A stretch of DNA of 64,000 nt from a virus: IMG/VR virus record IMGVR_UViG_3300027706_000007, positions 30,124-94,123 of that record; one strand, given 5' to 3'. Positions within the stretch are counted from its first letter, which is position 1. Every line of letters starts with the position of its first letter. This document shows positions 560 to 32,050 of the stretch, piece by piece. A program made the position numbers and the translations under genes. The notes beneath the pieces are model-generated. The model saw nothing but the letters and a program-made list of their open reading frames with translations, searched no databases and was not told the DNA's origin.

Positions 560-606
560 GCGCTACAAAATATTTAAATAAAACGTTTTTATATTTCCTT
601 TTACGT

Positions 607-3081
607 ATGTCTAATAATCAGTCTCCTTATCCGTACGCACAAGTTCTTGAAGTAAATCAACCTTCTGGGTCACTTCCCCCTGAACAGCAACCACCTCAAA
701 AAGAACCTCCCACAAGAGAGCCGTCTCCTGAACTGCCGCCAAAAGAGCCGCCAGAAAAAGAACCCGAACCAGAAAAATCGTCATCATCGTTTGAGGTTCC
801 GCGGAAAATAAGAATACCCGATAGGTTAGCGAATGATGTAAAAATTTTGGCGGAATATGCAATTAAGACTGATGGAGAAGCGGGAGGTTTCTTGGTAATT
901 GGATTGCATGGAAATGTCGGGGTTATCTCAGAACAATTGGGAGAAAACCGCGAGATTGTGCTAAAACCGAATGAAAAATTACATGAGGGAGAATTATATA
1001 TAGGAACTGTTCACTCACACCCTGTATGCGTAATAGGAGATTTTGTTTTGATAGAAACGGAACGAGGTCGTATTCCTATAAAGGATGTAAGAGTAGGAGA
1101 TTCGGTATTATCATATGGTGGTGTTTATCGCAAAGTAATCGACAAGATAACTTTCCCATACAGAGGAAAACAAACAACTGTGACAATTGATTTAAGAAAG
1201 CCGAAGGAACATAAGTTTCAAAAACTTACGACAACTTTCAACCACCCATATAGGATTTTTAGAGAAGGAAAAGAGCTTTGGGTACTTGCTGAAGAACTTA
1301 GAATAGGAGACGAAATATTTGTCCCGGAATATCTACTCAATTTCTGTCTAGTTTGTAAAAAACCGATAAATAACATCAGCCAATATTGTTCTAGAAAATG
1401 CCGTTTTATTCACAATTATAATCCAAAAAATCCAAGCGAAAAATGCTTTTATTGTGGAAAACAAATCTCTGGTCGCTATCCATATAATAAAAAGTATTGT
1501 TCTTTGAGTTGCCACATGAAAGATGCTCATCAAAAAGGACTAGTTCCTATTCACAAGTTTGACAATTTTAATCCAGAATTCCAAAGAAAAGCCAAATTAG
1601 CAAGATTCAAAACAGCAAAGGGAGGAAGTCGTTGGGAGCGCGTTGTTTTTGATTATTTAAAAAAGATGGGCGTGACTGGACTTGAGAAACAATATCCTGT
1701 TCAAATTGGAACGTATACTACCTATGCTGGAAAACGAACTATACCTAGATTCATTTTTATGGATATTGCTATTCCAGAACGAAAGATTGACATTGAGATA
1801 GACGGCGAATTATGGCACAGAATGAGAAAAGAAGAAGATGAACAACGAGATAAGAAGCTCGAAGAAATGGGCTGGACAGTTATTCGAATTCCTGCTCGTC
1901 AAGTAGCTTCTAACGCATTTAGTGAAATTCTTGCTCCCTTATTTAACATCCCTCTTCTTGCAGACCCCCCAATTAATTTTGTTAAAATACCCATATTGAA
2001 AGTTGAAACTAAGACAGCTTCTCATGCACATGCTATAGGATTAACAATAGAAGGAAATAACTATGATGAAAATTCGGTAGTAACTAACGGAATTCTAACT
2101 CATAACACAGATTTACAATCGACTGGCGACGTTATTAGTTTTCTCGCGGATGAAAAAGAGAAAGTAATGCTCGTTACGGGCGCGGATAGTTCAATTAATA
2201 TTTCATTCAAAACACAATTTACAAAAGAAGGCGATTTCTCACGAGATATACGCGAGCATTTCAAACAAAAAGATATGTTAGAAATGTCGAAAATATATGG
2301 ATTTTTGTGGTATCGCGGAGAAAATTTCTCAACCGAATTGGAATTACAAACAAAAGAACTTGGCGAGTTAAAGTTGCAACCCATAGAAGAAACGTGGAAT
2401 ATAGAAGATTTGCTAGAAGCGCTCGATATTAAAGGCTCGCCCGAGTTGCCAAATGATTATTCAACAAAGAAGTATCCGAAGAAATCTAAGCAAGATGAAT
2501 CGCGTGGAATGACTCAACTCGAATTAAAACATTATATGGATAACTCATTTAAATTGCTCTCGGATATTGAAGAAGGTTACGCTAGCGCGGGAGGATTTAG
2601 TAGAGATATGGCTACGCGGATAGCTAACACATTTCCTAAGTGGATAAATTCTCTCAATCGTGTTCTAGAAGGCGTTGATGACCCCGAGTTATATAAGCGC
2701 GCGATAGAATTACTAGACCGAATACAAAATGTTTATGGGCTTGCGGTCGATACGCTTGGTGGAAAAACGATGGTCGAAGATTATAGCGATGTCGCGGAAA
2801 ATTTGTTAACCAGATTACGTCCTAAACTTCAAAAACTATTTAATGAGCTAAATTATCTAGAGTCTATATACTCAAAACAGGGCTATTTCGATTCTAAAGA
2901 GTTAAACTACATTCTGTCCGATTTTCCCGAAATGGTGGAGTTAATTAATAAATTGAATTTCGAGAAAATAGATAACGCGACCGCTTCAAAACTTTTTGAA
3001 GCAGTTGAACGCGCGTCAAGTCTTTATAATTTAGCACTGGCTCAAACACAAGAACGTGACCCATTAGTCGAAGAGAAATAA
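607..3081 (+). CDS. JAB/MPN (JAMM) metallopeptidase-domain protein with Pro-rich N-terminus and helical C-terminus, containing an intein
   Basis: EAGGFLV followed by IGTVHSHPV|intein|TDLQSTGDV. Splicing restores an HxH...SxxD JAMM-like motif. Confidence 0.8.
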   Translation: MSNNQSPYPYAQVLEVNQPSGSLPPEQQPPQKEPPTREPSPELPPKEPPEKEPEPEKSSSSFEVPRKIRIPDRLANDVKILAEYAIKTDGEAGGFLVIGLHGNVGVISEQLGENREIVLKPNEKLHEGELYIGTVHSHPVCVIGDFVLIETERGRIPIKDVRVGDSVLSYGGVYRKVIDKITFPYRGKQTTVTIDLRKPKEHKFQKLTTTFNHPYRIFREGKELWVLAEELRIGDEIFVPEYLLNFCLVCKKPINNISQYCSRKCRFIHNYNPKNPSEKCFYCGKQISGRYPYNKKYCSLSCHMKDAHQKGLVPIHKFDNFNPEFQRKAKLARFKTAKGGSRWERVVFDYLKKMGVTGLEKQYPVQIGTYTTYAGKRTIPRFIFMDIAIPERKIDIEIDGELWHRMRKEEDEQRDKKLEEMGWTVIRIPARQVASNAFSEILAPLFNIPLLADPPINFVKIPILKVETKTASHAHAIGLTIEGNNYDENSVVTNGILTHNTDLQSTGDVISFLADEKEKVMLVTGADSSINISFKTQFTKEGDFSRDIREHFKQKDMLEMSKIYGFLWYRGENFSTELELQTKELGELKLQPIEETWNIEDLLEALDIKGSPELPNDYSTKKYPKKSKQDESRGMTQLELKHYMDNSFKLLSDIEEGYASAGGFSRDMATRIANTFPKWINSLNRVLEGVDDPELYKRAIELLDRIQNVYGLAVDTLGGKTMVEDYSDVAENLLTRLRPKLQKLFNELNYLESIYSKQGYFDSKELNYILSDFPEMVELINKLNFEKIDNATASKLFEAVERASSLYNLALAQTQERDPLVEEK
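1027..2106 (+). mobile_element. 360-aa intein with Cys-rich zinc fingers and a DUF559/Vsr-like homing endonuclease
   Basis: Starts CVIGDFVLIETERGRIPIKDVRVGD (block A), has TTFNHPY (block B) and ends GILTHN followed by Thr+1. Internal motifs SRWE, MDIAIPERKIDIEIDGELWH and DEQRDKKLEEMGWTVIRI, plus two CxxC...YCSxxC motifs. Confidence 0.93.
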
Positions 3082-29428: not shown

Positions 29429-32050
29429 TCACCAATCGCCATTTTTCATCATTATTTGTGTACCCGTGTCAATAAAATGCATATTGGTGGAGAAACTAAA
29501 ATCGGACTTTTCCTTACGCAGATAATTGTCAACTTCAAAACACAATACAGTTAAATCATAACTAAGCGGCCACTTTTTTACAAATACTTTTATGCGCATC
29601 GCCATTTTAAAATGAGTTATCATATAATATCTACTCTATTCCGAAAAAAACTTGTATTCGTTCATGTTGGGCAAATCTGAACATATGGTGAAAAGTAGCC
29701 GCATCAAGAATATCTATGCTTGATAGTCTAACATCGTTATTATCGCGGAAGCATTTAGCATATTTTTCAAGCTTATGTGATATATTGTAACCATACATTA
29801 ACTCTAAATATACGCTGTTCCTGTTCGTTGTGTAATATTCCAGACCTATTATTCTAACTTTCATATGTTTCACTTTTGATTATAATTTCTTCAAGCTTTT
29901 CTGAGTCCGCTAAATATTCAACAGTTGCAGTATTAACGCGCCATATTCTAAGTAGCGGCTGTTCTAAGTCTACAAAATTGGGAAATAAGCCCACATGGGA
30001 ATATTCCCACGTTGCTATACGCTGCATATCTCTTATCTTTAAAGGTATAACGGTTCTCATTTCAAGCGGCCTAATTTCCGCGTTGAATATCTGTTTTTTC
30101 ATATCTTTCACTCAAAACCACAACATTCAATTTCTATTACGCATTCTGTAAAATCTTCTATAGTATCGAAAATCCCAAGAAAATCAAATGCATTTATTTC
30201 TTCTTCTTCGAGCGAAGCGTCATCCCATAAATAATAGAATACATCCTGTCTTAACTGCGAAATATCTAAAGGTAACTCACAGGTAAAATGTTCAAAGCTA
30301 TAATAGGTATGGAAAGCGCTCTTAAATATATTTCGTATCTCAGGACTCATATCCCATCCATGTCTAACAAATGACTATATTAATATTTACGATTAATTTT
30401 GCAGATTGCGCGCAGTATAAAAGTCTAGCGCTTTTTTGGATTTATACGCCACCATTCGATTTGATTTATTGGCACACGTTCGTCGATTTCATGTGTAAGA
30501 TTGGTTTCGATATCATTAACAATAGCGCGGAACCAATTTAGTTCACTGAATCTGATTTTGATAATTTGTTCTTGTATCGCATATTTAACCAAGACCCGCG
30601 CACGCTTACGCTCGCGTCGCAGCGCCTTACTAATCGCGCGTATAACTCTTAAATCGGACTCATGTCCTCTTGTATCAATTTTTGGTTTCGTTGCATCTGC
30701 GGCTATAAGCGGGTAGCATATAAAAGCTTTTTTAAATTTAAAAATCGCAAAAACCTTATAAAGATAAGTGACATAAGAGCCACGTGATGAGCACGGGTGC
30801 TGTGCTGGGAGTGCGTATAAAAATATGAAAGTACGTGAAATTTTTTTCTGGTGGCAACTGCAGCCTATTGGCGCGTTAGAATGCGCGTATCGTCTATCAC
30901 GTAAGATGAATGTACCTTTTACTGCGCTAGCTTATGAGGCGAAAGAATATCTTACATGTAAGGATTCTTCGCCACTTCCTGATTTTGAGCCATTCTGGGA
31001 AGACATCGCTTATGATATGCGCTTAGGGACGCGCGATTTAATCATAGCAAATAAATTACGCGCATCTCTAAAAATGTGCGCGGTCTAAGGTTTTCCCAAT
31101 CTGTATCCGTACCCGTTAATAAGTTCCATGTAGCATAATATAACGATGATGTAATCTCTGCCATTCTACGGAAATCGGAATAGGGCGCGCGGTCATAACC
31201 AAACGAGTTCACTAGAAAATCTCTCCCTACAATCATATCATCTTGTAGTTCGCGCTCTACTAGCTCTTTTAGAAGTCGTGGATATAATTCCCGCTCAGAA
31301 AGATTTCGCAGTTTTCTCTTCATCACAATTCACCTCTATTATTTAAGTCCGAAAAGTATATAGTATGTTTCGCGTTCAACTTGCCTCGTTCTATATGTTA
31401 TATGTATTATATCGCGTTCTACTCCGCGCAAAAGATTAAGGTTGCTCCGTGACATATCGTATACTAGCGTATCTGGGGTCACCGAAAGATACATATCAGA
31501 TATTTTACCTAATATCTTTTTGATAAGTTCCTCGCTGTTTTCGCGCAGAATCAACATATCAAAGTCCTCCACTTTTCTCATATTTTATTCGCTAAGGAAA
31601 TTGTCCCATGTCCAATAATTATAGTTCTAAAAGTAATATAATACAAGTCGCCTTCTAATATGTCTAAGTATAGATATAGATATCCTCGCGCTAAAACGTA
31701 ATCTTCTTGTATCCTTTTATCTAGCTCGCCAAACATCTCCCGTAATCTAAATATAACTCGGAGATTAACTCCCCCGTTATCTTCATGCGTTAGAAATAGC
31801 ATTTCTATCTGTGCTCCATTAGTCTTAGACGGGGGTTATTTCTTTTCTGCGCTAGATATTTAATGTACCTGATATATGTTACGTCGTTAATTTGTGAATA
31901 TAATATCGACCAAATTAATGCTATATGGTTCCCAAATCTCTCAGCAAAATTGCTTGCGGCTAACAAAGTATTATCTTTTAGTTGTTCCTCTACACTAGAA
32001 AAAGTATCTCGCAGTTTCTCTTTCACCTTATCATCCGAATATACTATCAT
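29429..32050 (-). other. Cluster of ~65-95-aa ORFs (29429, 29631, 29854, 30108, 31042, 31339, 31578, 31805 on minus; 30825 on plus)
   Basis: Tightly packed or coupled ORFs. 31339, 31578 and 31805 share a (D/Q)(I/L)...(I/V)T(Y/F) motif. Confidence 0.65.

Follow-up and report, generated by a model that had tools for sequence, protein, structure and literature searches.

A predicted contiguous intein with an in-frame zinc-finger and Vsr-like nuclease interrupts the metal-binding motif of a divergent JAMM/MPN-type protein in an uncultured tailed virus

Class-1 inteins carry a standard set of splicing residues: a cysteine at position 1, a Thr-x-x-His motif in block B, a penultimate histidine, a terminal asparagine, and a hydroxyl nucleophile at the first position after the intein (+1). 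Homing endonucleases of the Vsr-like (EDxHD) type have been described as separate genes, located between the halves of split inteins and in group I introns (Dassa et al., 2009, PMC2677866; Taylor et al., 2011, PMC3239194). In non-canonical inteins of actinobacteriophages, surveyed in a 2025 preprint, Vsr-like endonuclease genes run antisense, and HNH is the only in-frame non-LAGLIDADG type listed; according to the same source, there are no other reports of intein-associated Vsr-like nucleases (bioRxiv 10.1101/2025.01.02.630785). Here we describe a 360-residue insert in a viral gene for the precursor of a JAB/MPN-like protein. The gene lies in a window of 64,000 nucleotides, the whole stretch of DNA analyzed, which forms the final 64 kb of a linear IMG/VR virus record of 94,123 bp (IMGVR_UViG_3300027706_000007, positions 30,124 to 94,123; estimated completeness 68%). 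Our overall reading, held with high confidence, is that the insert is a class-1 intein with an in-frame homing nuclease, and that it splits the metal site of a divergent JAMM/MPN-type peptidase.

The closest described systems share some of these features and lack others. The nuclease encoded in the window has a fold in common with I-Bth0305I (Protein Data Bank, PDB, entry 3R3P), together with conserved acidic and histidine residues; EDxHD endonucleases and the cargo of the window intein are, moreover, both linked to viral self-splicing elements, and both are modular, the nuclease being preceded on its N-terminal side by a DNA-binding region. The described EDxHD members, however, are separate open reading frames (ORFs)—at split inteins, in group I introns, or free-standing—whereas the window nuclease lies in frame within a contiguous intein. 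The DNA-binding region also differs: that of I-Bth0305I consists of NUMOD-type motifs, a feature of the prototype that may not define the whole EDxHD family, whereas the window intein has FCS-type Cys4 fingers. The actinobacteriophage inteins resemble the window intein in being contiguous, in residing in viral genes (structural or other), and in their association with a nuclease that is Vsr-like and not LAGLIDADG, but their Vsr-like gene is antisense and the window nuclease is in frame. In the open-access literature, neither an in-frame DUF559/EDxHD intein nor a naturally occurring JAB-protein intein was found described; an earlier description is possible.

The evidence that the insert is foreign to its host gene comes from several comparisons (features and coordinates are collected in Table 1). 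When a hidden Markov model (HMM) built from 12 intein-free homologues was run locally, the joined exteins gave one domain match of 323.4 bits that runs through the junction without a gap, whereas the precursor matched it as two domains, the first ending at residue 141 and the second resuming at residue 500. BLASTP alignments with the genes of eight related viral contigs break at residues 140 and 501, while the subject coordinates remain contiguous. With the C-extein as query, HMMER recovered 13 relatives among 1.84 billion representative proteins; 11 of the 13 are continuous across the site (HxHP[VIK]T...S.[GA]D), and all 30 related loci that span it in viral and metagenome contigs read HxHP[VI]T...S.GD without interruption, with identical spacing and no insert. 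Because the split HMM match, the BLASTP breaks, and the uninterrupted loci agree, the insertion can, on sequence comparison, be called certain, and its occurrence sporadic. The junctions read HSHPV/CVIGDF on the N-terminal side and GILTHN/TDLQSTGD on the C-terminal side; removal of the insert joins HSHPV to TDLQSTGD and restores the host sequence exactly. An earlier sequence-only reading of this DNA had placed an intein at 1027-2106, between HSHPV and TDLQSTGD, with Thr at +1. That interval is exact and corresponds to residues 141-500 of the ORF at 607-3081; the gapless one-domain match after joining, and the split of the precursor exactly at the insert, agree with the proposed placement; and the +1 residue is indeed a threonine, Thr501, a position that hardly varies within the host family. 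The same reading had suggested a search for intein-free alleles, and these are represented by the 30 related loci covering the site.

Table 1. Features of the JAB gene and its insert (positions in the window), and related inteins in other viral contigs. Slashes mark splice junctions.
Feature	Location	Strand	Remarks
TATA-like box TTTAAATA	573-580	+	Begins 34 nt 5' of the JAB-gene ATG; sequence match
Host gene, precursor of JAB/MPN-like protein	607-3081	+	824 codons open; 464 aa after predicted splicing
N-extein	607-1026 (aa 1-140)	+	Pro/Glu-rich linker, then first half of JAB core
Class-1 intein (predicted), 360 aa	1027-2106 (Cys141 to Asn500)	+	Insert boundaries and full-length alignment to relatives
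N-terminal HINT splicing region	1027-1332	+	Block A Cys141 (1027-1029); block B TFNH, aa 210-213 (1234-1245)
Cys4 finger 1 (FCS-type)	1345-1401 (aa 247-265)	+	C-x2-C-x10-C-x3-C, YCSxxC end; Cys invariant in A4
Cys4 finger 2 (FCS-type)	1444-1512 (aa 280-302)	+	C-x2-C-x14-C-x3-C, YCSxxC end; related inteins lack it
Vsr/EDxHD-like (DUF559) nuclease domain	1612-1950	+	Pfam DUF559 above cut-off; structural matches
C-terminal HINT splicing region, blocks F and G	1978-2106	+	Last residues His499-Asn500
C-extein, family-conserved part	2107-2520	+	Thr501 (2107-2109), Ser505 to Asp508 (2119-2130), second half of JAB core, ...YSTKK tail
C-terminal extension, ~186 aa	2521-3078	+	No counterpart among homologues found
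Related intein, L040 group	L040:3001-4047		No Pfam family assigned to host; junctions HPH/C ... HN/C
Related intein, L045 group	L045:3001-4035		Host Phage_min_cap2 (minor capsid protein 2); junctions HPN/C ... HN/C
Related intein, L068			Host MuF-like, C-terminal ADP-ribosyltransferase domain; junctions HPM/C ... HN/C
Related intein, L071			Host MuF-like, C-terminal ADP-ribosyltransferase domain; junctions HPN/C ... HN/C
Related intein, L072			Host Phage_Mu_F; junctions DIN/C ... HN/C
Related intein, L069			Host C5 cytosine methylase; junctions HPE/C ... KN/C

All of the intein signature residues are present in the insert and at its edge: Cys141, the TFNH (TxxH) motif of block B, the penultimate His499, the terminal Asn500, and Thr501 at +1. 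The N-terminal HINT region is 34% identical over 101 residues to an insert in the portal protein of Eggerthella phage LE2-3 (pairwise E 2e-13), and a tblastn comparison of the whole protein with GenBank phages matched nothing but a HINT-like insert, in the portal of an Eggerthella phage. Several results nevertheless count against the assignment to the HINT fold. On the window intein, the Pfam model PT-HINT reaches 20.9 bits (cut-off 27.7) and the NCBIfam model intein_Cterm 13.5 bits (cut-off 15.6); block F lacks its usual Asp and His; and an AlphaFold2 model of the intein (overall pLDDT 52) is unreliable in its HINT parts, where pLDDT falls below 50.

The assignment draws instead on relatives of the intein, which came to light when small alignments were used for pattern scans of IMG/VR. 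Full-length, in-frame relatives, 22-29% identical over residues 1-360, occur in at least six further groups of viral contigs and have the domain order of the window intein: HINT-N, Cys4 finger, DUF559, HINT-C. Of the six groups compared with Pfam, each by a single representative ORF, five had DUF559 in frame, and the sixth, L072, had in its place a match below threshold to MTES_1575, a related nuclease model. The Pfam model Intein_splicing (cut-off 35.8) was passed by L045 (37.8), L068 (66.5), and L072 (43.2), and in the L045 relative Intein_splicing, PT-HINT, and DUF559 were all passed within a single ORF. The HINT identity of the window intein is therefore anchored by homology. In an alignment of three inteins (A4), the invariant positions comprise Cys1, Thr70, and His73, the four cysteines of finger 1, the Asp/Glu/Asp/His/Asp set of the nuclease, and, in the C-terminal HINT region, D347, E348, G355, H359, and N360. 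The other 21 loci of the first pattern scan are free-standing ORFs of 162-514 aa without intein ends. Word-indexed searches of 5.8 billion proteins, with the whole protein and with the intein region, returned only a 97% identical variant, P0005; the reading of the element as an orphan intein, which would follow from those searches, is rejected by the full-length relatives in IMG/VR.

The window intein thus has company, and it appears to belong to a small, as yet undescribed family. It also stands apart from the other members: those lie in MuF/minor-capsid or C5 cytosine methylase genes, with Cys at +1 and one finger, whereas the window intein lies in a JAB gene, with Thr at +1 and two fingers. 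In the JAB (window 1012-1026), MuF, and methylase hosts, a His-Pro pair occupies positions -3/-2, which corresponds to CAYCC 4-9 nt before the junction; L072 (DIN/C) is the exception. This shared feature may reflect target recognition, a splicing requirement, or chance. One of the MuF-like ORFs (L068:1-3540) holds two tandem inteins, one ending at residue 428 and the DUF559 intein occupying residues 478-859.

Pfam DUF559 matches the cargo of the window intein at 28.1-31.8 bits, above the cut-off of 20.6, and two Cys4 fingers were located upstream of the nuclease; no LAGLIDADG motif is found in the window intein. The sequence-only description of the cargo as a DUF559/Vsr-like nuclease with two Cys fingers instead of LAGLIDADG was accurate. 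The nuclease domain of the AlphaFold2 model is usable (pLDDT 59-86 per 10-residue block), and its best PDB match is 3r3p, the catalytic domain of I-Bth0305I (Z 10.9, rmsd 2.4, 91 of 98 residues), followed by the DUF559 protein 3hrl (Z 10.1) and Escherichia coli Vsr, 1cw0 (Z 9.7). Asp386, Glu397, Asp399, His404, and Asp411 are invariant with respect to the proteins P0019 and P0020 and the related inteins, and we infer that they correspond to the catalytic set of I-Bth0305I. There is no Pfam match to NUMOD in the window protein, the N-terminal module being the two FCS-type fingers. Nor is there a long antisense ORF within the intein (the longest is 61 aa), so that the nuclease would be made in frame. 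The same arrangement of fingers and then DUF559 occurs in P0019, a free-standing 335-aa metagenome protein that is 42% identical over the nuclease; Atlas look-alikes of the cargo, taken as a lead only, are free-standing viral DUF559/zf-FCS proteins; and the finger region is matched by PHROG families whose annotation is homing or HNH endonuclease (phrog_1271, E 7e-13). Together, these observations indicate that fingers and nuclease were one pre-existing endonuclease unit, and the cargo probably descends from free-standing viral finger-plus-DUF559 endonucleases.

If the insert is an intein of this kind, a course of events can be proposed for it. After translation, Cys141 would form a thioester, the acyl group would move to the hydroxyl of Thr501, cyclization of Asn500 would free the intein, and an O-to-N shift would link Val140 to Thr501. 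The predicted product, 464 aa long, would have HSHPVTDLQSTGD as an unbroken motif, as do all intein-free homologues. The excised intein would act as a two-module homing endonuclease, its two FCS-type zinc fingers binding DNA and its Vsr/EDxHD-like (DUF559) nuclease cutting it; when a relative with an intein-less JAB allele infects the same cell, that allele would be cut and would gain the intein through recombinational repair.

The last part of this scheme meets a competing account, in which the intein splices but its endonuclease is inactive, the element having become fixed in the lineage and reached the decay stage of the homing cycle. The empty sites give no sign of recent homing: no near-identical intein-less allele was found, and the nearest empty sites are identical at 28-34 of 60 nt. 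Composition and codon usage give no clear sign of a foreign intein; its GC content at third codon positions (GC3) is close to that of the flanks and gives no hint of recent arrival. The only sequence variant, P0005, points the same way: compared with the window protein, it lacks 18 residues of the Pro/Glu linker and has three substitutions, each of them in finger 1, within a 14-residue stretch, and one of them converting a ligand Cys to Ser. These differences may mark an endonuclease in the first stages of decay, or else be noise. The identical 824-aa protein is present on six contigs from several sources. Against an inactive endonuclease, however, the window allele keeps all eight finger cysteines as well as Asp386, Glu397, Asp399, His404, and Asp411, and the whole 360-aa element has been kept rather than trimmed to a mini-intein. 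We consider an inactive endonuclease somewhat unlikely, and an intein with a functional homing nuclease remains the preferred account of the insert.

The host protein is read as a divergent MPN+ (JAMM) metallopeptidase because it combines a Glu/HxH/SxxD motif with the predicted fold of an intein-free homologue, P0013. The metal-site residues fall on both sides of the insert, with Glu91 (877-879) and His136 and His138 (1012-1020) before it and Ser505 and Asp508 after it, in keeping with the earlier proposal that the intein separates the HxH and SxxD parts of the JAMM motif. It is reasonable to infer from this arrangement that the metal site would be complete only after splicing. Within the family, the Glu, His-x-His, Ser, and Asp residues are nearly invariant, as is the +1 threonine. 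The MPN fold was examined on P0013, the spliced window protein being compared with the homologue HMM only. AlphaFold2, given a 12-sequence alignment, modeled P0013 with a pLDDT of 80.3 and a pTM of 0.81. All 30 Foldseek matches of this model at E <=0.001 are JAMM/MPN proteins—among them AMSH, STAMBPL1, and the Prp8 Jab1/MPN domain—with probabilities up to 1.0, and Cap3 and MPN subunits of the proteasome lid appear just above that E value. A second structural aligner gave Z 7.6-8.1 for Rpn11, a Caldiarchaeum Rpn11 homologue (CsRpn11), Pyrococcus JAMM1 (PfJAMM1), Cap3, and AF2198, the first four aligning over 111-130 residues.

Some properties of the family weaken this assignment. Matches to the Pfam model Prok-JAB (PF14464) are sub-threshold (12-21 bits) in eight of nine family members, the best being 21.2 bits (P0018) against a cut-off of 25; on the N-extein of the window protein the score is 14.4 bits over aa 112-139. 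The loop, HxH-x6-S-x2-D, falls one residue short of the canonical x7. A structural Z of about 8 is "middling" by the scale of the aligner itself, yet all of the top matches share one fold. The shorter loop and the low Prok-JAB scores, along with variable zinc-finger N-termini, set the family apart from the described JAMM/MPN+ proteins Rpn11, AMSH, archaeal JAMM1, and CBASS Cap3, with which it has the Glu ... HxH ... SxxD motif and the predicted fold in common. The label "JAB protease" in the sequence-only reading is accordingly supported, with a reservation: the motif and the MPN fold of P0013 agree with it, while the Prok-JAB cut-off of 25 bits is never reached. A comparison with the MPN fold, which that reading had put forward as a check, was made on P0013, and its top matches are all JAMM/MPN.

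The family is narrowly distributed among the collections searched. Its members were found only in viral and metagenome contigs, and their N-termini are variable, many of them with zinc fingers. The JAB family was not found among genomes representing one per prokaryote species, nor in GenBank phages; a PDB sequence search with the family profile gave no matches; NCBIfam and PADLOC, run on the intein-free homologues, gave noise or very weak JAB matches only; and P0002, as sole query, had no matches in viral contigs or metagenome contigs. Matches to homologues end at about residue 139 of the C-extein, and the C-terminal extension beyond that point receives only a weak Pfam match. Two homologues, P0015 and P0016, have C-terminal extensions of other kinds than that of the window protein. 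Another, P0010 (738 aa, from a Logan contig), has a LAGLIDADG intein of 354 aa, inserted six residues before the window site (GT/C...HN/CHMHP). The P0010 intein has no detectable similarity to the window intein; the two JAB inteins are therefore independent, and the same motif was invaded twice. Two unrelated inteins in one metal-binding motif support the view that the motif is functionally important.

Near-invariant Glu, HxH, Ser, and Asp residues are typical of catalytically active MPN+ proteins. The host protein could nonetheless have an MPN fold without (iso)peptidase activity and serve instead as a scaffold-type MPN protein or as a RadC-like protein that acts on DNA. The scores below the Prok-JAB cut-off and the loop one residue short of canonical JAMM would suit such a role, as would the N-terminal zinc fingers of many homologues and a conserved upstream partner that resembles RPA/SSB-type OB-fold proteins (an Atlas lead only, at 0.85). 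In the other direction, the metal-site residues are nearly invariant even though the homologues are only 34-53% identical to the reference P0013, and two independent inteins occupy the same motif. We regard an inactive MPN protein as rather unlikely, and a divergent MPN+ metallopeptidase as the better description of the host.

The sequence-only reading had also proposed that splicing could gate the JAB activity. Conditional protein splicing is established in other inteins, and since the metal site is probably incomplete in the precursor, judging from the position of the intein, splicing that responds to redox state or temperature, for example, could in principle act as a switch that times JAB activity during infection. 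The sequence, however, indicates no sensor, and all 30 related viruses lack the intein, so that the intein would not be needed for the function of the JAB protein. A regulatory switch of this sort is very unlikely. That the insert is a permanent, non-splicing domain retained in the mature protein is extremely improbable: the HINT family models do fall below cut-off on the window sequence, but Cys1, TxxH, His-Asn, and the +1 nucleophile are all present, over its whole length the insert is homologous to others that score above the Pfam Intein_splicing cut-off, and 360 residues splitting the metal-binding loop would probably destroy the site.

The source of the window is an uncultured tailed virus, probably with an archaeal host. 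Its genes include a terminase large subunit, a portal, a tail-tube protein, and a family B DNA polymerase. Of 67 occurrences of TTTAWATA in the window, 19 begin 30-34 nt 5' of ORF ATGs, with about 0.4 expected per 5-nt bin, and another 11 begin 40-44 nt 5' of ORF ATGs (examples of the box lie at 307-314 and 573-580). The enrichment at 30-34 nt fits archaeal leaderless transcription, and the boxes point to archaeal-type promoters of leaderless or short-leader mRNAs; TTTAAATA at 573-580 is a probable promoter of this type for a leaderless JAB mRNA. A scan for sigma-70 promoters and terminators showed no enrichment. Megablast of 20 kb against GenBank phages gave no matches, and the portal protein and an intein-free JAB homologue, used as queries against the same collection, likewise gave none. 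These results, with the tblastn search described above, indicate a lineage without a deposited relative in that collection.

Further elements of this virus and its relatives can be placed around the JAB gene. The virus has a second intein, upstream of the window (G000:C1:14359-16386), of the LAGLIDADG type and extending from Cys197 to Asn562 with Cys at +1; its host is a 675-aa protein encoded next to the terminase gene. The idea that the JAB intein is a recent intragenomic copy of this second intein was rejected, the similarity between them being at block level only (24% over 74 aa). In related viruses, a gene of ~270 aa usually lies directly 5' of the JAB gene (L022:2160-2966, L031:2093-2932, L008:4292-5131); in the source virus it lies ~2.3 kb away from the JAB gene (G000:C1:27637-28440). 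Atlas look-alikes of its product, again a lead only, are RPA/SSB-type OB-fold proteins (score 0.85). A portal gene often lies near the JAB gene.

A broader interpretation would join these observations into one account. In-frame zinc-finger-plus-DUF559 contiguous inteins would then constitute an undescribed class, the "fully integrated" end state that the fractured-gene model predicts for the entry of free-standing endonucleases into inteins; they would have jumped among MuF/minor-capsid, methylase, and JAB genes, perhaps between bacterial and archaeal viruses, guided by a shared target (His-Pro at -3/-2, or CAYCC); and the JAB peptidase, possibly a counter-defense enzyme that removes ubiquitin-like tags, would be under obligatory splicing control. 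Taken as a whole, this account is improbable, and we offer it as speculation.

At a more modest level, the locus provides a natural case of a Vsr/EDxHD-type nuclease in frame within a contiguous intein, an arrangement for which the papers searched give only separate, antisense, or split-locus counterparts. A compact zinc-finger-plus-Vsr nuclease, and an intein with Thr at +1, could also serve as parts for protein engineering. The occurrence of His-Pro before the insertion in three unrelated host genes is a clue to how new sites may be chosen. The finding extends current ideas and overturns none: it adds a new host class for inteins, a virus-specific JAB/MPN peptidase in a probable archaeal-virus setting, and the relatives show that the in-frame Vsr/DUF559 intein is a recurring family and not a one-off.

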